DNA from: Trypanosoma brucei | Lineage: Eukaryota | Direction of reading: 5' to 3' | NCBI GenBank assembly: GCA_000002445.1 | Contig: CP000071.1 | Location: forward strand, 1,824,001-1,888,000 | DNA length: 64,000 nt | Shown here: one piece after another, positions 1,799-20,206 of the stretch | How the letters are laid out: every line of letters starts with the position of its first letter | How positions within the stretch are numbered: the stretch's first letter is position 1 | Notes under the pieces: model-generated | The model's database searches: none | Told to the model about the DNA's origin: nothing | What the model saw: the letters and a program-made list of their open reading frames with translations, nothing else | Program-made: the position numbers and the translations under genes

Positions 1799-2054
1799 GG
1801 TTGCGTATGGACATGCCACATTACACTTTGTGCATGTGTACAGTTTGTGCATATTTGTTGTGATTCTCTTATTTTTCGCTTCTGTTCCTTTCTGTGCTGC
1901 TTTTTCTTCCGCCGTATCTTCCGCTGTCCACCCAACTGTTCTCTGTATTATTATTATTTTTTTTGTGGGGGCACTCCCTCTTATCTGTACGTGATGACCA
2001 GGACAACTCCACTGGTGGCGAGCTTAGGTGGAGAGGTGCCATTTGTCGGGATTC

Positions 2055-3320
2055 ATGGAAGACGCGGTAGAGGCGCACCGCACTGGGTTGGTGGTGGCCC
2101 TCTGCGGTTCCGAAAAGAAACACCGACAGTCGTTTGAAAAAATCCGACGGTACGCTGAAGGCATAAGAAACGAAAGTGGTAAGAATGGTACACCTACCTT
2201 TGGCGGTGGACGCACCTTTGTCTTTGTTGATATGAAGTACGATGCCCACAACCGCGAGATGATCACCGACGATGATGATATGAAAGTGGATGTAGTTCTT
2301 CACAAGTTGAGTACGCTGCCGCCAGAGGCCTTCGGTGCGCTTTTGAAGTGGTGTGAGGCAACATCAGCAAAGCGACGACAGAAACGGTTACCACCCGTTG
2401 TTGTAATCGACCCTCCTAACGCGGCGCGAGTCGTTATGAAGCGTTCCACATTGGCCAAAGCTCTTGAGGGTCGACCGGTACCATCACTTTTCCTGACACC
2501 CCGTTCGTGGTTTTGTTCTTGTGGTGGTGGAGCGCTGGAACCACTTGGGTGGCGGGACACTGATTCCACCGTGACCCCCGATACCACAGAGGGCAGCTGT
2601 GAGTGGTGGATCACCAAAACAGATCTTAGCACAGGTCCATCCTACACTCATCGCATGGTCGTATGGCAGGGACCAGTTCCAACAAATGGCATACCCCAAG
2701 CAGTGATGAAACTCCTGCCCTCTGAGTCGCAAACGTACATTGTCCAGAAGTTTTTCTTGAGTGCCCTTCCCTTTGTTCTGAAGGTGTACTGTGTGAGAGA
2801 ATACGTGGCCATTCGAGCGGTTTCAGCCTTTTCATTGTTACGTGCTTTGCTGGACGGCTATTCTTCCATAAACAGCAACAGTGAAGGTTTTCAACCTGTC
2901 TGTATCGATTCCCAAAAGATATTTGCAAATAAGGATGTGTGGGATCAGCAAAACCCACAGTTAGCGCAGCATTGGCAGCGTTATCTTATTGAGGGCGGGG
3001 AAGCCCACACCCAGTGCAAGGCGATTGCTGCTCAACTGTCGCAGACGTTGCAACTGTCGCTTTTCGGTTTTGATTTACTATTGTTACCTAAGGATTTACC
3101 TTCCGGTAATCAGCCTATACTTGAGAGCCCCATAACTGCGGAAGCAGTGGGGGCGCTGCTGTTTGAAGAAAAAGGTGTCGGTTCCCCTACAATTCTTCTA
3201 CGCACTGCGGTGCCGATGGTTGTAGATGTTAATTACTTCCCGGGTTATGCTGGGATGTCCGAAGTGGAACGCCGTATAACGGAAATGATCGAGTCAAGTG
3301 TTGTTTCAAAAGATTGCTAA
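2055..3320 (+). CDS. ITPK1: Inositol-tetrakisphosphate 1-kinase / inositol 1,3,4-trisphosphate 5/6-kinase (ITPK1 family, ATP-grasp)
   Basis: The track start at 2028 is a GTG. The first in-frame ATG is at 2055. Blocks collinear with ITPK1: VDVVLHKLS; VVVIDPPNAARVVMKRSTL; VQKFFLSALPFVLKVYCVREY; LSLFGFDLLL; VVDVNYFPGYAGMSEV (compare IDINAFPGYEGVSEF in ITPK1). Confidence 0.8.
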   Translation: MEDAVEAHRTGLVVALCGSEKKHRQSFEKIRRYAEGIRNESGKNGTPTFGGGRTFVFVDMKYDAHNREMITDDDDMKVDVVLHKLSTLPPEAFGALLKWCEATSAKRRQKRLPPVVVIDPPNAARVVMKRSTLAKALEGRPVPSLFLTPRSWFCSCGGGALEPLGWRDTDSTVTPDTTEGSCEWWITKTDLSTGPSYTHRMVVWQGPVPTNGIPQAVMKLLPSESQTYIVQKFFLSALPFVLKVYCVREYVAIRAVSAFSLLRALLDGYSSINSNSEGFQPVCIDSQKIFANKDVWDQQNPQLAQHWQRYLIEGGEAHTQCKAIAAQLSQTLQLSLFGFDLLLLPKDLPSGNQPILESPITAEAVGALLFEEKGVGSPTILLRTAVPMVVDVNYFPGYAGMSEVERRITEMIESSVVSKDC

Positions 3321-5528: not shown

Positions 5529-6136
5529 ATACACAGGAGTCGAAAAGGAAATTAAATGCTTTTCAAGGGGTATGTTTGTATACTCTGTGATGGGTTTGTT
5601 GTGTAACTTGCAGTCTGGTGTACGTTTAAGTTTTACTGGGTTATTCTTGGCTTATTTCGTATTCTTTCCTCCGTGCGCTTGTGCATGCATTCTTTTTTTT
5701 TTTTTGCCTGTACGTGGGTATGTACTATCGTACTTTCGTATGGCTCCGCTGCATTACCGTATACTTTCAATCATAGACTTATTCCAATCGTGAAGGGGTT
5801 TCTTAGGAGCACATTGGTTGAGTTGACGGGGAACTATCTCTTTGTTTTTTTTCGTACCCAACTTGGCTGGTGTGCACATGGCCATGGAAACTCTTCTTCA
5901 GGCTTACAATTGTTGGTCTTTTCATCTCGTCCCGTAATTACCACTTTACATACTCAGTTACTTTTGACGTTTTACTTTTTATTTGTCTCTTATTTACTTC
6001 TGCCCCCTGTCCCTTATTTACTCATTGTTTTTTTTTCTTAAGTCGTGGTCGCTGGTTTGGCACGATCTCCAACACAACCACTGCTACCACTGGTTGCAAG
6101 AGGGTTTGGCACCAAAGTAAATTCTAAAATAAAGAT

Positions 6137-6499
6137 ATGGCGGCACCACTAGCAGCGTTGGTCCTACTGGGTGGTGCGTATTACATTTTTAGGTTGGCTC
6201 CGCGAATAACGCAGCGTGTTTCAATGGCACAAGGCCTAACGTGCGCGGCAAATCGGCAGCTGCGACCGTACCGCCGATATGAGGGGGGTTTCGAGAAATC
6301 CATGACGAAACGTGAGGCACTACTGCTGCTTGGCTTTACTGAAGATGTTGCCTCCGGTGGATTCCTTTCCCTTCCATCAGATGAGGAAATAAAAACACGG
6401 TATTATGGTTTAATGAAGCAACTACACTCGGACGTGGATGGCAGTCCGTATATTGCAGCGAAGTTGAATGAAGCACGGGACATACTGGGGAAGAAGTAA
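6137..6499 (+). CDS. Pam18/Tim14 (DNAJC19)-like inner-membrane J-protein with a degenerate J-domain (HSD instead of HPD)
   Basis: The ORF starts with ATG. There is an N-terminal transmembrane segment (AAPLAALVLLGGAYYIF). The C-terminal block REALLLLGFTED...LMKQLHSDVDGSPYIAAKLNEARDILGKK aligns with the yeast Pam18 J-domain (...[23 protein letters not shown]). Confidence 0.7.
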   Translation: MAAPLAALVLLGGAYYIFRLAPRITQRVSMAQGLTCAANRQLRPYRRYEGGFEKSMTKREALLLLGFTEDVASGGFLSLPSDEEIKTRYYGLMKQLHSDVDGSPYIAAKLNEARDILGKK

Positions 6500-6966: not shown

Positions 6967-8220
6967 ATGATGTCATCCTCAGCTTTTACGGCGGCGGCAA
7001 TCGGTGAACGGCTACAAGTAGCACTGGAAGAAGCAACACGTCACCTCGAATGCGGTTGCTCCATAAAATGCTCGCTGGCAATATTACCAGACATCGCTCT
7101 GCAGGGGATGGCACACAGTTGGGGGATCGTTGACCTTATCGAACATTCACAGGGCAGCACCTACGAGTTGGCTGTAGGTTTGGGAAAAGATGTGCTAAGG
7201 GAGGCCCTCGCAGATTTCTTACGTGAACAACAGAATTCCGATAGAAGAGAAGAGGCGCTGCCCCTCATAGCACCCGTTGTGCATAACCTGCCACGTTTCT
7301 CTGTAGTGCTGTTGCTCCTCATCATGCCTGCTCACAGCAGCCTGTGGAGTGCGAGACGACGTTGGATAGAGACATGCACTGCAAACGGTGAAGATCATTC
7401 CCGCTCCTTCTTGTTTCAGGAGGTGCTCGTAACGTCTTTACTGCTAAACTTTTATTATAAAGTGCAGGAGGTCTGGGTTTATCGGTGGTGGGTAGTAGAA
7501 CGGCTCTTATCGCATCCTGGTATAAACTTGGAGGTTTTCAACGACCACGACCGCGGTGTGCTGATGGAGGCCGCTGACAAGCATCCCATGAACTATAACG
7601 CCTGGAACTATCGCCGTCAGGTGTTCGAAAATATTTTGAACATCACACAAAACGCAAGTAGGTGCAGGTCATGCGCGTCAACACCTTCATTACTCCAGCA
7701 GGAGGTTGAAATCGCGCTGCGTTTTTTTGAAACCCACAACGGTGATACGTCTGCTGCGTCGTATCTTATTTTTCTTCTTCACAAGGCGGAGACCATCAGA
7801 AGTGACAGCGCAGAGGGTAAGTATAATCAGAATAGTGGTGTTTGTGCCGGTTCCTTAGTGCATAGTGTGTGGAAAAGGCTTATGTTAGCCAGTACACAAG
7901 AGTTGCGTCGGCACTGGGACAAGGGTCACGAAGCCGTCTGGGTGTTGCGTTTGGCACTCATTCACTGGGCGCTTCGCATCCGTCCCATGTGCGGTTGGTC
8001 ACTCGAGGATGAAATGCATCTCATATCAGTTTATATGGAATTGCCAACGCTGCATGATGAATGGGTTGGTTTGAGCGAAGTGACGTGGGTGGCGGCCTCA
8101 GGGAGTCCTTCATGGACTTCGTTTTATGCAGCACGGTACGGTGTTCAGTTGCTAAAATTAGTTACTAATGCGTGCCGTGGGAAGGGAAGAAAAGTTATCG
8201 ACTCTGATGGCCACAAATAA
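6967..8220 (+). CDS. Protein prenyltransferase alpha-subunit repeat (PPTA) protein
   Basis: The ORF starts with ATG. It carries PPTA-type repeat signatures: HPMNYNAWNYRRQVFENI and WVYRWWVVERLLSHP. The subunit type (FTase/GGTase-I alpha versus RabGGTase alpha) cannot be resolved by eye. Confidence 0.55.
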   Translation: MMSSSAFTAAAIGERLQVALEEATRHLECGCSIKCSLAILPDIALQGMAHSWGIVDLIEHSQGSTYELAVGLGKDVLREALADFLREQQNSDRREEALPLIAPVVHNLPRFSVVLLLLIMPAHSSLWSARRRWIETCTANGEDHSRSFLFQEVLVTSLLLNFYYKVQEVWVYRWWVVERLLSHPGINLEVFNDHDRGVLMEAADKHPMNYNAWNYRRQVFENILNITQNASRCRSCASTPSLLQQEVEIALRFFETHNGDTSAASYLIFLLHKAETIRSDSAEGKYNQNSGVCAGSLVHSVWKRLMLASTQELRRHWDKGHEAVWVLRLALIHWALRIRPMCGWSLEDEMHLISVYMELPTLHDEWVGLSEVTWVAASGSPSWTSFYAARYGVQLLKLVTNACRGKGRKVIDSDGHK

Positions 8221-8610: not shown

Positions 8611-11271
8611 ATGTCGAAGGCCCCTGAGCTGTGTTATTTGTTGCGCGCAGAGGGCCGCATTCATACAGCCGATGTTCGTCACGTTTCCTCTTCGTCGGGT
8701 CTCCTCTTAACCTCCTCGCGCGACCAGACTACTTTTGTCATTGATGCTCCAGGCACTACACCGTGGCCCTCAGGTGACGATTTTCCCACGGGGTTGACAC
8801 TCACCGGTCACACTGCTTTTGTCAACTTCGCCATAATGCATAGCGGGATACCGCTTTTGGGTGGTGAGCCATGCGTTATCACGGGCGGCAATGACAAACA
8901 TGTTGCACTATGGAACCCGCAAACAGCTGCGCTGGAAGCAGTTCTCGACAGTCACAGTCACGGTGTTTGCTGTGGTCTTGTGGTTACATCCACCGTTGCT
9001 GAAGGTGCGGGGCACGACGGTAGTGTTGGGGATATTGTGACAGGTGATTGGGGTGGTATGTGTCTCGTTTTTGATGCGACAACGGGTGATGTAAAGCAGT
9101 GCTACAGGGGACACTCAACAGCCGTTCGGAGTATCACGCAATTACCAAGGACCAGCAGCATTGTGAGCGCCTCTGGGGACAAAACCCTTCATCAGTGGAA
9201 CGTGGCGACGGGTGAGGAAATTGCCGTGTACACTGGTCATACAGATGTAGTTCAATGTGTATGTGCCATAAGCTCTACTCGGTTCGCCTCTGGTAGCAAC
9301 GATACGACGATCATAATTTGGGACACAACAGTTGGAACTCACCCCCTACGCAGCTTACTCATGCACCATAGTTTGGTCTACTCCTTGTGTTTTTGCAACG
9401 ACCGTCAGTTACTCTTCTCTGCTTCGGAAGACTGCACTGTGAAGGTGATTAGTGGCGCGAGCACTGTATCTGCCCCCACTGTAGGATCCTCGGTGGATGT
9501 TGGTGACGTGGCCGTAGTTCAGAGTATCAACCACCCATGTGTTGTGTGGTCTGTGTGCACAACGGAGGTTGGGGATATTGTGACGGGCGCCGCGGATGGT
9601 GCCGTGCGAGTGTGGACACTTAATGATGAGTTAATGGCATCTGTTGGAAAGTTGGAAGCACTTGCGGAGGCGGTTGCCACGCAGAAACTCGACATCAAGA
9701 TTACATCAATCGCCGGAACTAATATTGCTGATCTCCCCCCTGTAGAGCAACTCCATCAAAAGAAGGGGGTTCAAGAGGGTGAACGCTGCTTTGTACGCAC
9801 GAAGGGGGAAACGGTGGAAGTTTATGCATGGGACCAAGGCCGATGGGAGAAAATAGGCATCGTCACTGAGGGAACTCAGGGTCAACCGTACACAGGTGCG
9901 CAATCGGGCAGCGCAGCGCAGAAGCCCAAGGTGTATTTCAACGGGGTTCCCTACGATTACGTTTTCGATGTTGATGTGAATGGGACAATGCTTAAACTTC
10001 CGTACAACCGTGGTCAGAATATCTTTGACGCAGCGCAAGATTTCATCAATAAAAATAGCGCCGTTGTCTCCCAGACTCACAAGGAAGAGATACAAAACTT
10101 TATTCTGAATAACATCGACCCCCAGGACGCGCTGCTGCTGACCGGCTCGCAACAAGGGCTATCAGCTGCAGGGGGAGGAACGGTGTCTGGTGGTGGGAGT
10201 CATGAACCTGTTTTCTCCCAGTTCGCACGTGAAGCCATGGAGATGCGCCAAGCGGGTGCCTCGCACGTACCAAGTTGGGGTGAGGCGCTGCGAAACATGG
10301 AGAATGCCGGCGTAACTGCAAATGATGTTGCCTTCTCGGGTTATGCCCGCGAGGAGATTGAACTTCAAAGGCAGCAGGAGAAACAGCTGCCACAGGCGCC
10401 CACTGCGGGGGGAAGCGATGTCGTTGCATGGAGTAGTCATCGATACTTCACCTCCATCAACCTGGAGGGTGTGCAAAAGAAGATTAACGAACTAACAGGA
10501 GGCACGGAATTCGGAGAGCTCGTGCAACGAGTTGAGGCGGGAGCGAGGGCGGCGCCGAGTGTAGGCTTACTTCTTAACATCATGGAGCTTCACAAGCGGT
10601 TACCGGAGGCCTCGCGCTTCCCTGCGCTTGATTTGCTCAGTCGTCTACTGGCGGTGGGACGTCATCCCTACCGGTGGCTTCTGCTACTTTTAGGTGACAG
10701 CCCCGGGGAGTGGTATTGCTCCCCGCTAAAGTTTATGGAAGAATGCGTGTTGGGTGTCGACCGCGCCAGTGATGCTGAGTGTTTGGTGACTGTACGACTT
10801 TTCCTCCATGCTGCTGCAGCACTTGACGCCTTGCCGGCTAGCACCTCCATAACACCGGAACAAGCTGCGGTGCTGCTGCAGGCCTTTACACAAGCACCGC
10901 GTTCTTTCATCAAAAAGAATATGAACAACAACATGAAGAAATCAGTTAGTGCCCTGCTTCAGAATGTTTCCTTACTTCTTGCGCATGGCGCCCCAATGTT
11001 TGGTGATGAGGGTCGCCTGAACTGCACGCAGGAATGTGTGCGCATGGCATCCCACATGCTGCTACTGGAGCCCATGTCATCCCCCGTAATAGCGGAGGTA
11101 GTGGCCACGGTCTTAACGTTACTGCAGGCAGAAAGCACTGCTAACGCAGCTGCCGCTGTTGGTCGGGGCACTTTATTGCACACGATGCGTCTCCTGAAAT
11201 CTGGGTCAGAGCAGCGCTGCAGAAGGGCAGCAGATATAATCCTCCGTGTGCTAGAGGCTGATGGGTCTTGA
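8611..11271 (+). CDS. PLAA: Phospholipase A2-activating protein / Doa1/Ufd3 homologue (WD40 + PFU + PUL domains)
   Basis: The ORF starts with ATG. The N-terminus has a 7-bladed WD40 region (repeated GH..V...S.D.T...W motifs). The central PFU ubiquitin-binding domain is VPYDYVFDVDVNGTMLKLPYNRGQNIFDAAQDFINKN. The C-terminal region is an armadillo-like PUL domain. Confidence 0.85.
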   Translation: MSKAPELCYLLRAEGRIHTADVRHVSSSSGLLLTSSRDQTTFVIDAPGTTPWPSGDDFPTGLTLTGHTAFVNFAIMHSGIPLLGGEPCVITGGNDKHVALWNPQTAALEAVLDSHSHGVCCGLVVTSTVAEGAGHDGSVGDIVTGDWGGMCLVFDATTGDVKQCYRGHSTAVRSITQLPRTSSIVSASGDKTLHQWNVATGEEIAVYTGHTDVVQCVCAISSTRFASGSNDTTIIIWDTTVGTHPLRSLLMHHSLVYSLCFCNDRQLLFSASEDCTVKVISGASTVSAPTVGSSVDVGDVAVVQSINHPCVVWSVCTTEVGDIVTGAADGAVRVWTLNDELMASVGKLEALAEAVATQKLDIKITSIAGTNIADLPPVEQLHQKKGVQEGERCFVRTKGETVEVYAWDQGRWEKIGIVTEGTQGQPYTGAQSGSAAQKPKVYFNGVPYDYVFDVDVNGTMLKLPYNRGQNIFDAAQDFINKNSAVVSQTHKEEIQNFILNNIDPQDALLLTGSQQGLSAAGGGTVSGGGSHEPVFSQFAREAMEMRQAGASHVPSWGEALRNMENAGVTANDVAFSGYAREEIELQRQQEKQLPQAPTAGGSDVVAWSSHRYFTSINLEGVQKKINELTGGTEFGELVQRVEAGARAAPSVGLLLNIMELHKRLPEASRFPALDLLSRLLAVGRHPYRWLLLLLGDSPGEWYCSPLKFMEECVLGVDRASDAECLVTVRLFLHAAAALDALPASTSITPEQAAVLLQAFTQAPRSFIKKNMNNNMKKSVSALLQNVSLLLAHGAPMFGDEGRLNCTQECVRMASHMLLLEPMSSPVIAEVVATVLTLLQAESTANAAAAVGRGTLLHTMRLLKSGSEQRCRRAADIILRVLEADGS

Positions 11272-12243
11272 TAATTCGCAACGCGAAATTCAAAGATGAC
11301 CGTATGTCCATCAACACGAACTGAAGGCACTCCTTCAAAGTACCTATAAGTCCTTCATGGTACATTTTCCGGTATTCATGCGTCGTAGGTGCCTAATTTT
11401 CATTGTCGTTGCCATTATTGGTTGGCCTTCCTCCCATAACTTCAGACAGTAGTCCGTTGAACTGATGCAAGCACGCGCCTTCCGAAGGATAATGTAGCAT
11501 AACACGGTTACCTTGTCAGGTGCGAGGAGGCTCCGTGATTGAGTGGGCAAAAAAAAAGAAAAAGAATAAACAAATAAATAATGAAATGGGGAGGGAGGGA
11601 GGGAAGAGAGGCAATGGAAAGAATCTGAAGTGGGAAGTGGGAAGGAATTTGACAGGTGAGGAAAGTACGAGGAACCGTGTGACTCCCGCACACAAGTTGC
11701 ACTTCCGCGAATACTGTCAAAGTGCGCGACTTTGTTTTCTCCTCTTCCTAATGACAATTTGTGTGTCGTTTCACCTACTCTAAGGATTTTTTTTTCGTCG
11801 ACTCGCATTTGTGTCTTGCCAGAATTGGGTGTACTTCGCTCCTCTTCTTCTTCATTCTCATTTTCATCCTTTAACATCTCGCGAACAAACGTGCATACAT
11901 AAATTCCCCGCATTTTTTTTTTGGCGGACAAAAGTAACGAGCCCAAATCCAGTGTGGGAGAAAGGACAAAAGAAAACAACAGGCAAGCGAACAAGGTTGT
12001 GGTGGGCTGGAGTAAAGAAATATATTATTTTTCTATTTGGTGTATTTTATATTTCGCTTCTCCACAATAGCCATATACAAAAAAAAAACACCAATAACAA
12101 TATAAAATAAATAACAGCAAGCAATCAGCCTTTCAAACGGCAATAATCTGGAAGGGAGCAAATAAACTAATAGACAAACGGAAAACAGAAATATAAAGGA
12201 AGTGGATTACTCGAATCGTAACTTTAACTTCAGTGATATCAAT

Positions 12244-13254
12244 ATGAAGAAGGCTTTGATCTCGGATTTCTTTCGTGAGGGAGTAAATGTGGCTGCGCGG
12301 GGTGTAAGCGAATGCAATGGAGCTACTGCGCCTCAACTTCATTCTCGGTGTGATTCCAGCATAGATGATGTGGACAACCGAAGTGTTGGTTGTTGTCACA
12401 GTCGTTGCGATAGCGCAGGGAGCGAGTGGGTGTGCCCTGAACTGCATGAGAAACGCTCAGAGCGGGAAATCCTCCTCCTCACTCCATCCGTCGCCGCGCC
12501 CCAACATTACGACAAAAGAGAAAAGTTAAATGAAGCCGATTCCCTACACTTGAAACATGCAGCGGAGTATGAAATCATCGTCCCTGCTGTGGCCCGCGCG
12601 CTTCAACATGTGGTGGAGGCTCATGAAACCTGGCGGCTGGAGATGTCTTCATCTGCTGGTGGCATACGTGTGCGGAAAAGTCTCATTTCCAACAGTAGTG
12701 CCGCACATGCTGCTACAGATGTTGCTGCTGCATGTGGTTCTGAGGGCACCGTGAGAGAAAAGAAAAGGAATCACTATCCGCAGGTATTTGAATCAGCAGT
12801 GCCTCCACCCTTCACGCTCCTCCACTACGTGCAGATGCTGGCAAACCATACATTTGTATCGCCATCCGTCCTTGTTGCAGCGTGTTTATATACAGATCGA
12901 TTTATTGAACAGTGGTCCGACTTGCGGTTAACATTGAACAATGTATTCAAGATCTTTCTTACGGCTGTGCGCGTTGCCAACAAAATTCTGGACATTAGAG
13001 TACTAAATAATGAGGACTTCGCCGCTGTTGGTGGGGTGAGTAACCCGGAACTCAATGCCATGGAAAAGATATTTACATGGGGTCTACGATTTGACTTGTA
13101 CATCAGCTCAACGGAGTTTGACCGGTACGTCACCGGTCTCATGTCTCAATCTTCCACAAAACCTTTTAAGCAGGTCGGTTGCACTTGCAAAATCACGAAG
13201 TCAAACATTATGATTGAGGTACCTGCAGAGGCAGTGGAAGGCGCAGCAGTTTGA
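12244..13254 (+). CDS. PHO80-like cyclin (short paralogue)
   Basis: The track start at 12202 is a GTG. The first in-frame ATG is at 12244. The cyclin box is LLHYVQMLANHTFVSPSVLVAACLYTDRF...IFLTAVRVANKILDIRVLNNEDFAAVGGVSNPELNAMEKIFTWGLRFDLYISSTEFDRY. From memory, T. brucei has adjacent PHO80-type cyclins CYC10 and CYC11. I cannot verify that here. Confidence 0.8.
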   Translation: MKKALISDFFREGVNVAARGVSECNGATAPQLHSRCDSSIDDVDNRSVGCCHSRCDSAGSEWVCPELHEKRSEREILLLTPSVAAPQHYDKREKLNEADSLHLKHAAEYEIIVPAVARALQHVVEAHETWRLEMSSSAGGIRVRKSLISNSSAAHAATDVAAACGSEGTVREKKRNHYPQVFESAVPPPFTLLHYVQMLANHTFVSPSVLVAACLYTDRFIEQWSDLRLTLNNVFKIFLTAVRVANKILDIRVLNNEDFAAVGGVSNPELNAMEKIFTWGLRFDLYISSTEFDRYVTGLMSQSSTKPFKQVGCTCKITKSNIMIEVPAEAVEGAAV

Positions 13255-17842: not shown

Positions 17843-20206
17843 ATGACTGCTCAAACCCCCTCAGGGAAGGCGCATTGCGCTGATCATCAGACGGCTGATA
17901 TGTCGTTGTGGGAACTACCAGTGGATGAACCGTTTCCCCTCGTACAGTTGGTACTTTCTATCCATACACTTTACAATCTCCCGCCGGAACTGGGCCGACT
18001 TGACCCACGCTATGAGCAATTAGAAATTGTGATGTGGCCGGTTGTGAAGTACACATATCGTGAGCGGCGAATCATGCATCTCCCATTACCGGAGCACGTC
18101 TTTCCTGTCTCTGTTACCGCCATGGTGTTGCGAGGTGACACATATTTGATTGACTTTGATGGTATAAAGAAGGATGCCACATGTGAGTCAAGCACTTCAC
18201 TGAGCAGTTCTCCATCATTGGAAGCCCCAGAGGGAAGCAGTGGCGAGCAACCCGTTATTGTAAAGGGAAACTCCGCCACGCTACAGTTCCCGTGTCCCAC
18301 TGGGTTGAGGGCGGTGGTTCGGGTCTCAATTGGAGTCCGCCAGCGCCGGTTAGGCTTCTCTGCAGTGCGGTGGATCACTGAAAACGCAAATCCACGTACC
18401 ACATCGGATGGCATTGGCGTCTTTTCAGTTGCAACGGAGGAGGTTTATCGGACGAAGTTAGTCACACGTGTTGTGGGCCACAGCGTTGGTGCCATGATTT
18501 GCTCTCTTGGGGTCAACCCGTATGATGGTCGCGACGTTATTGTGCAGCGCCTCCTACGCGACAAGGAGCGGTTTACTTCCACATACGTCTCCCAGAGGCC
18601 CGTGCTGGAAAAGGCGAATGTAGAGGCGATGCTGCGAGATGGCTACAGTGAGCAGCTGATTTACCGTCACATGCTTTTGCTTGTCGAACCCAATCACTAC
18701 AAGATGAGGTTGGAAGCCCTATTCACAATGTACGATCTCAATAGGCGCCCGAGTTGGTGGAGAGACTCGTTGCTTCAGACTGATTACATTCTGCGGGAGG
18801 AGGAACTTATTCGACGTGTGTGTGTAGAGATCGGACCTGAATGCAGTGCAACATCCCCACGCTACCGTCTGTGGGCGTTCCGCAAAAAGTATTCCCTCAG
18901 TGAGACGAGTATTGTTTCATGCTTGCGGCCCATTATCAACTCCAGTGTTACTGAAGCACTTCTCTCCGAACCGGGGACCATTTTCGCTGCACTCACTCGC
19001 CGTTTCGGGTGCGAACCGCTGCCAACGGCGTATCTCTTTCCACCGCGAAGTTACGAAGGGGAGTATCGTACATTTATCTTTGAAGCACTGAGCCTTCCGC
19101 TGGGGCCGTTTATGGGTAAGTACACTGACGTGTCACACATCGCACGGGCCAAAAGGGCCCCTTTCACATCGTCACCGTACGAGCAGCCGCTTGCAAAGGT
19201 TGCGGCGGGAAGTCCGCACGGTGGCGTGATGAGTGAAGTGGATGCACTGCGCGCGAAGCATGCACCGGAGTTTGTACAGATTGTGCCTCCTATTGCCGCT
19301 GCGTTACGCGCCGTAGTGGAGCAGAGTGGGAAGTTACCACTGGAACAACAAGAAAAGGCGAACGCGGTAACACATATCTTCTGTGAGAGGCAAATGTCCC
19401 CGCAGGGGCCCTTCCATGATTTCATGCACCGACTGGCGGATCTGACGTTTATTTCACCCGCTACACTTCTTGGAGCGGCAATACTCCTTGACCGCCTCTG
19501 TATGCGGCGGCCTGATATCCTTGTCACGGAGTTGAATGCACCACGTCTCTTCCTCACCTCTGCGCGCGTTGTGTCGAAGGTTCTGGAGCTGCGGAGCGTC
19601 AGCAACCGTTGCTTCGCCAACGCCTTCGGGGTGAATACCAAGACGCTTAACCTGTGGGAAGAATTCTTTATCAAGATGCTCAAGTTTGACCTCTGCATTA
19701 AGCCACAGGAATTCAAGGAGTACACAAACTTACTTTTTACGTCGGGTGCCCCGCCAGTGCGGGTAGCGGCTTCTCCAATATCGAGATTCCGCATTCATAA
19801 CGACAATTTGTGCACGCGGATGGGGTCTCTAACGCGGAAATGTGAAGCAACAACAGCGCTGTCGAGCAGGTCCCTCCGCTCCACAGCCGTTGAAATACCA
19901 AACATGTACACCTACAACAAAAGGTACGGCCCGAGGCAAGGCGCAGATACTGGTTTGGATGGCAGCAATGTTGTTATTGGGCGTGAGGATGATGCAAGAA
20001 ACGCTAGTGCTGCACGGGACATAAAAGCTGCAGCAGGAGGCTCGGGCGGCTCATTGAGTACTTTTGAAGCTGGAACTATGGGTTGTTTATCACACGTAAA
20101 TGACGTGGGGATCCGACGGGGTACAGAACCGACCATTTTGCCTCGAAAAATATGCAATGGAAGGAATTTGAGCCCCTGTCTGACCGTGGCAAGGCGAGGG
20201 AGTTGA
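17843..20206 (+). CDS. PHO80-like cyclin (long paralogue with ~450-aa N-terminal extension)
   Basis: The ORF starts with ATG. The C-terminal cyclin box FMHRLADLTFISPATLLGAAILLDRL...LFLTSARVVSKVLELRSVSNRCFANAFGVNTKTLNLWEEFFIKMLKFDLCIKPQEFKEY is clearly paralogous to the cyclin box of the gene at 12244-13254. Confidence 0.8.
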   Translation: MTAQTPSGKAHCADHQTADMSLWELPVDEPFPLVQLVLSIHTLYNLPPELGRLDPRYEQLEIVMWPVVKYTYRERRIMHLPLPEHVFPVSVTAMVLRGDTYLIDFDGIKKDATCESSTSLSSSPSLEAPEGSSGEQPVIVKGNSATLQFPCPTGLRAVVRVSIGVRQRRLGFSAVRWITENANPRTTSDGIGVFSVATEEVYRTKLVTRVVGHSVGAMICSLGVNPYDGRDVIVQRLLRDKERFTSTYVSQRPVLEKANVEAMLRDGYSEQLIYRHMLLLVEPNHYKMRLEALFTMYDLNRRPSWWRDSLLQTDYILREEELIRRVCVEIGPECSATSPRYRLWAFRKKYSLSETSIVSCLRPIINSSVTEALLSEPGTIFAALTRRFGCEPLPTAYLFPPRSYEGEYRTFIFEALSLPLGPFMGKYTDVSHIARAKRAPFTSSPYEQPLAKVAAGSPHGGVMSEVDALRAKHAPEFVQIVPPIAAALRAVVEQSGKLPLEQQEKANAVTHIFCERQMSPQGPFHDFMHRLADLTFISPATLLGAAILLDRLCMRRPDILVTELNAPRLFLTSARVVSKVLELRSVSNRCFANAFGVNTKTLNLWEEFFIKMLKFDLCIKPQEFKEYTNLLFTSGAPPVRVAASPISRFRIHNDNLCTRMGSLTRKCEATTALSSRSLRSTAVEIPNMYTYNKRYGPRQGADTGLDGSNVVIGREDDARNASAARDIKAAAGGSGGSLSTFEAGTMGCLSHVNDVGIRRGTEPTILPRKICNGRNLSPCLTVARRGS

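Follow-up and report, generated by a model that had tools for sequence, protein, structure and literature searches.

The window, i.e. the whole 64-kb stretch of Trypanosoma brucei DNA which was analyzed, carries all its large ORFs on the + strand, a layout consistent with one polycistronic unit. The feature of interest is a short ORF near its left end; this ORF, its 5' flank and the neighbors named by Pfam are the following:

2028-3320, + strand: inositol 1,3,4-trisphosphate 5/6-kinase-like protein (Pfam)
5962..6042, + strand: candidate polypyrimidine tract; the first AG after it is at 6041-6042 (read from the sequence)
6137..6499, + strand: TbPam18 orthologue, complete CDS, 120 aa plus stop (ORF list, sequence, identity to database proteins)
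6967-8220, + strand: prenyltransferase alpha-subunit repeat (PPTA) protein (Pfam)
8611-11271, + strand: WD40 + PFU + PUL protein of PLAA/Doa1-type architecture (Pfam)
12202-13254 and 17843-20206, + strand: two cyclin-domain proteins (Pfam)

According to the ORF list and the sequence, the ORF at 6137..6499 (+) starts with ATG, ends with TAA and comprises 120 codons. An in-frame TAA is read 12 nt 5' of the ATG, so that the N-terminus is fixed and no upstream extension is available. The AG at 6041-6042 is a possible trans-splice acceptor, judging from the way in which trypanosomatid mRNAs are generally processed, and would leave a 5' UTR ~94 nt long. The translation is MAAPLAALVLLGGAYYIFRLAPRITQRVSMAQGLTCAANRQLRPYRRYEGGFEKSMTKREALLLLGFTEDVASGGFLSLPSDEEIKTRYYGLMKQLHSDVDGSPYIAAKLNEARDILGKK, in which the protein strings quoted in the preliminary description (...LMKQLHSDVDGSPYIAAKLNEARDILGKK) are found unchanged. 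It shows 100% identity to the database entries AAZ13395.1 / Q57YN2 (T. brucei TREU927), CBH13699.1 (T. b. gambiense DAL972) and SCU70929.1 (T. equiperdum), as well as to RHW73069.1.

From its protein, its gene order and its DNA, the window can be recognized as a piece of a Trypanozoon chromosome. A 6.3-kb stretch around the ORF shows 99.2-99.9% DNA identity to other Trypanozoon assemblies, and the order inositol-phosphate-kinase-like protein, 485-aa protein, TbPam18 gene is common to the window and three Trypanozoon reference assemblies; at the two fully annotated loci, the PPTA-repeat protein and the WD40/PFU/PUL protein come next after the TbPam18 gene. The gene is syntenic in T. b. gambiense FN554971.1, which we take, from its accession series, to be chromosome 8 of this subspecies; this would fit a Tb927.8 gene identifier. 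The neighbors named by Pfam have no evident functional link to Pam18.

Four regions were delimited within the protein by combining hydropathy, alignment to yeast Tim14, structure prediction and literature data:

6149..6199, + strand: single transmembrane helix, predicted at about residues 5-21 after a 4-residue N-terminus, with approximate boundaries (hydropathy, AlphaFold, PMC11349236)
6281..6496, + strand: residues 49-120, J-like domain together with the 'GGF..M' arm before it (yeast Tim14 alignment, AlphaFold, Foldseek)
6347..6370, + strand: about 7-8 residues (VASGGFLS) inserted between helices I and II of the J-domain, residues ~71-78 (gap relative to yeast Tim14)
6425..6433, + strand: HSD tripeptide His97-Ser98-Asp99, CAC TCG GAC, at the position equivalent to HPD (translation, alignments)

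The Pro of the HPD tripeptide is needed for ATPase stimulation in canonical J-domains. Here its place is taken by Ser98, encoded by TCG at window positions 6428-6430, and the same codon was found in all three reference assemblies and all three independent read-set assemblies compared. Within the ORF the sequences compared differ only by a synonymous T/C exchange, located at position 144 of the ORF (window 6280), where Tyr48 is encoded by TAT or TAC: T is present in the window and in T. equiperdum OVI (L003), C in T. b. gambiense, in GCA_003543875.1 and in the three read-set assemblies.

The architecture proposed in the preliminary description, an N-terminal transmembrane segment followed by a C-terminal J-like domain of Pam18 type, emerges in the same way from hydropathy, AlphaFold and the Tim14 alignment. 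The N-terminal 19 residues form the most hydrophobic stretch of the protein, with a Kyte-Doolittle mean of 1.48. The AlphaFold model, for which the alignment of nine orthologues was used as input, places helices at residues 3-37, 58-64, 82-98 and 104-118; the N-terminal one is modelled from residue 3 with low confidence, helix II ends at His97/Ser98 and helix III corresponds to residues 104-118. The pLDDT is 68.8 over the whole protein, a moderate value, and reaches 76-91 in the J-like part, while residues 20-48 are unreliable. Foldseek returned the yeast Tim14 chain 2guz_A as top PDB match, with probability 1.00, a target-normalised TM of 0.72 and 35% identity, at a weak E of 0.05. The predicted fold is thus supportive rather than decisive evidence for Pam18 affiliation. 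The insertion between helices I and II is present in all 9 orthologues with variable sequence; in the exhaustive profile search, matches to canonical HPD proteins cover ~66-67 residues over ~72-73 profile positions.

Sequence searches led to the same family. When the single sequence was compared to all PDB chains, yeast Tim14/Pam18 (2guz_A) was the only significant match, at E 6.8e-7, which rises to E 2e-10 with a profile of the nine orthologues. The alignment covers Tim14 residues 4-67, starting at the 'GGF..M' arm and reaching the C-terminus, and sets the HSD of the query exactly opposite the Tim14 HPD. The Tim16/Pam16 chain of the same PDB entry was not matched at E<=10 by either the sequence or the profile. 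Against Pfam, DnaJ (PF00226) scores 14.9 bits, E 0.03, below the 27.8-bit gathering score, and is matched in only 6 of the 9 orthologues, with a best E of 0.0026; Pam16 (PF03656) is matched by none of the nine at a nominal E<=10, a cut-off to be read with the fact that HMMER filters remove most matches above ~0.1. Since the DnaJ score is below threshold, the family was assigned from the alignment to Tim14, from the profile search and from the fold. In the profile search, the closest non-kinetoplastid relatives are canonical Pam18/DNAJC19 proteins featuring 'NHPDxGGSxYxAxKIN'. By descent the ORF protein is a J-like member of the Pam18/Tim14/DNAJC19 family, placed outside its functional definition as Hsp70 stimulator by the lack of an intact HPD.

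Conservation of the motif was followed in the orthologues recovered. Those from Trypanosoma are 61-68% identical, with His97, Asp99 and a 'V.GS...A.K.NEAR' core invariant; the middle residue of the tripeptide is Ser in 8 of 9 close orthologues and Thr (HTD) in T. congolense (P0002). On a wider scale, an exhaustive profile search covering 1.84 billion representatives, followed by alignment to the profile, provided 157 tabulated sequences. The 23 best-scoring representatives are all H[S/T/A]D; proteins which combine HPD with the signature of Pam18/DNAJC19 are met from rank 24 on, predominate from about rank 31 and contribute to an overall count of 122 HPD sequences among the 157. Outside Trypanosoma, Phytomonas has HSD and Neobodo designis (P0166), a free-living bodonid, has HVD. 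The relatives P0018, P0025, P0028 and P0030 show HAD or HTD. His and Asp are invariant throughout. One eukprot gene model of 629 aa (P0048) carries an HSD J-like domain at ~19-102 and may be fused or mis-predicted. Pro is absent from the middle position in every kinetoplastid orthologue recovered: the tripeptide is mostly HSD, and the residue found in place of Pro varies. As read from these sequences, the variation among S, T, A and V fits a relaxed constraint at that position.

Two other explanations of the missing Pro were considered. A single C-to-T transition is enough to turn CCG into TCG, so that the tripeptide might stem from an error in sequencing or assembly, or from a mutation confined to one strain. 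Agreement of the TCG codon among the six assemblies excludes a sequencing error, and both the absence of Pro from every kinetoplastid orthologue recovered here and the published alignment, in which HSD is called highly conserved (PMC11349236), reduce the chance of an artefact to a negligible level; the replacement, reported at first from the window sequence with an error at the Pro codon (CCN to TCN) as one of its caveats, is a true change. Alternatively, the ORF could encode a Pam16/Tim16 orthologue, in which a missing HPD is expected. The J-like domain of Pam16 and the J domain of Pam18 are homologous, and the two profiles overlap, as some canonical HPD relatives carry precomputed matches to both PF00226 and PF03656. 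The nine orthologues, however, give no match to PF03656 at a nominal E<=10, the PDB search yields Tim14 and, at E<=10, not Tim16, the motif His and Asp are retained together with the flanking 'GS..A.K.NEA' Pam18 signature, and the nearest relatives beyond kinetoplastids are HPD proteins; in addition a separate TbPam16 (Tb927.9.13530) exists (PMC7064343, PMC11349236). Such an origin is very improbable, and the Pam16 identity was ruled out for want of PF03656 and Tim16 matches. The assignment to the Pam18/Tim14 type, as initially made, holds.

The protein has in fact been studied. TbPam18 (Tb927.8.6310) and TbPam16 (Tb927.9.13530) have been described as the Pam18 and Pam16 orthologues of T. brucei (von Kanel et al. 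2020 eLife, PMC7064343), and the ORF apparently corresponds to the former: this link to the gene identifier is based on the Ser98 numbering of the S98P variant, on the 4-aa N-terminus, on the apparent chromosome and on the fact that no second Pam18-like protein was recovered from Trypanozoon. No differences from published TbPam18 were found, and the ORF is one synonymous base off some strains. Both proteins are located outside the presequence import motor; TbPam18 is not co-purified with TIM, its RNAi does not directly block import, and carbonate extraction defines it as an integral membrane protein (PMC7064343). It lies in the inner membrane, with a 4-aa N-terminus exposed to the IMS and a TMD essential for function (PMC11349236). 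ER proteins had been recovered in the 2020 TbPam18-HA pulldown (PMC7064343), and tagged TbPam18 was later found to be non-functional (PMC11349236). Pulldown of TbPam16 recovered TbPam18, MaRF11 and TbCOQ8, with no TbmHsp70 and no other J-proteins, and procyclic cells selectively lose their kDNA maxicircles when TbPam18, TbPam16 or MaRF11 is depleted (PMC11349236). In complementation experiments TbPam18-S98P, in which HSD is changed to HPD, is fully functional (2024 PLoS Biol, PMC11349236); complementation fails with a chimera that carries the J-domain of yeast Pam18 (PMC11349236). The failure of this swap might stem from the helix I-II insertion, from the Leu and 'VDGS' changes around the tripeptide or from the missing IMS domain. 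The view taken in the preliminary description, that trypanosomatid Pam18/Pam16 orthologues stand outside the presequence import motor and act in kDNA maintenance, is borne out by these two studies.

Taken together, these data make it very probable that the ORF encodes a true Pam18 orthologue which lost the Pro of HPD, was replaced by TbPam27 in the import motor and is now engaged in maxicircle replication. According to the published experiments TbPam27, an unrelated J-protein, has taken over the role in the presequence import motor; TbPam18 is anchored in the inner membrane by one N-terminal helix, exposes its J-like domain to the matrix and, with TbPam16 and MaRF11, is required for kDNA maxicircle replication. 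It would probably act without stimulating mtHsp70, to judge from the motif and the pulldowns. Because the middle residue drifts among S, T, A and V and the S98P protein is functional, the passage from HPD to HxD would be best seen as decay under relaxed constraint following the change of job, rather than as a gain specific to Ser; complementation by S98P implies that Ser itself is not the source of the new function. For the loss of HPD two outcomes had been considered at first, a regulatory role on Hsp70 similar to that of Pam16 or a repurposed function: the latter agrees with the published role in maxicircle maintenance, while the former is not shown by the experiments.

TbPam18 might still operate as an Hsp70 co-chaperone, either through a weak or conditional activity of HSD or by indirect recruitment of TbmHsp70 together with TbPam16, in which case its phenotype would depend on Hsp70; by the indirect route, the TbPam18/TbPam16 pair may bring TbmHsp70 to MaRF11 or to the maxicircle replication machinery. 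Invariance of the motif His and Asp in all relatives suggests some constraint on the loop, the protein with restored HPD is fully functional (PMC11349236) and depletion of TbmHsp70/TbmHsp40 also hits maxicircles preferentially and shrinks kDNA (PMC4337576; PMC11349236). Against these points stand the absence of TbmHsp70 and of other J-proteins from the TbPam16 pulldowns (PMC11349236), the dependence of ATPase stimulation by canonical J-domains on the missing Pro (cited in PMC11349236), and the drift of the middle residue, which is what is expected if stimulation of Hsp70 is no longer selected. A surviving co-chaperone activity appears improbable on this balance, and a function of TbPam18 in maxicircle replication not relying on Hsp70 stimulation is preferred.

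A further question concerns the age of the change. In the diplonemid Artemidia motanka a Pam18-like protein (P0029) has HGD, and a close relative of this protein (P0037) has HAD, both being otherwise canonical ('NH.DRGGSPYLARKINE'). In a rough NJ tree, built on the short J-like region, poorly resolved and with no support values, these two sit among HPD proteins, a position which suggests that they represent a paralogue of their own or that Pro was lost independently. For Diplonema, a mitoproteome study of 2025 reports Pam18 as two paralogues, along with a homologue of Pam27 (PMC12699882); diplonemids, euglenids and Bodo receive no mention in the main text of PMC11349236. From the S/T/A/V variation, which extends to the HVD of Neobodo, the diplonemid HGD and the diplonemid Pam27 it can be proposed that loss of the HPD Pro is not peculiar to the HSD of trypanosomatids and represents an older state of relaxed constraint, Pam18 having left the import motor prior to the divergence of kinetoplastids. 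The proposal is a tentative one and rather unlikely to be right as it stands; if true, the release of Pam18 would predate both the catenated kDNA network and maxicircles, and its first new job would not have been maxicircle replication as such.

The identification of an HSD-type Pam18 in T. brucei is correct. It is also already published and experimentally tested, including both the conservation of the tripeptide and the HSD-to-HPD mutant; the only addition made here is the variation of the middle residue among S, T, A and V in kinetoplastids, along with the HGD of a diplonemid Pam18-like protein. The case is one of a core import-motor subunit replaced by a non-orthologous protein and then repurposed to control replication of the mitochondrial genome.

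The protein may be compared to three known systems. Like yeast Pam18/Tim14 and human DNAJC19/DNAJC15, it is small, is held in the inner membrane by one TM helix and carries its J-domain at the C-terminus, on the matrix side; it shares with them the 'GGF..M..EA..IL' arm and the 'H.D.GGS.Y.A.K.NEA' core. It differs from canonical Pam18 in having HSD for HPD, Leu for the near-universal Asn before the His, 'VDGS' for 'xGGS' after the Asp and the helix I-II insertion of ~7-8 residues, and in being devoid of a long N-terminal IMS domain; moreover its TM helix is essential, whereas that of yeast Pam18 is dispensable (PMC11349236). With Pam16/Tim16 it has in common a J-like fold lacking a functional HPD, and TbPam16 is its published binding partner; unlike Pam16/Tim16, TbPam18 keeps the motif His and Asp, and its sequence is nested beside HPD Pam18s. 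TbPam27 is likewise a mitochondrial inner-membrane protein of the J family in T. brucei, but it is euglenozoan-specific, non-orthologous and encoded elsewhere, its gene not being present in the 64-kb window as far as examined.
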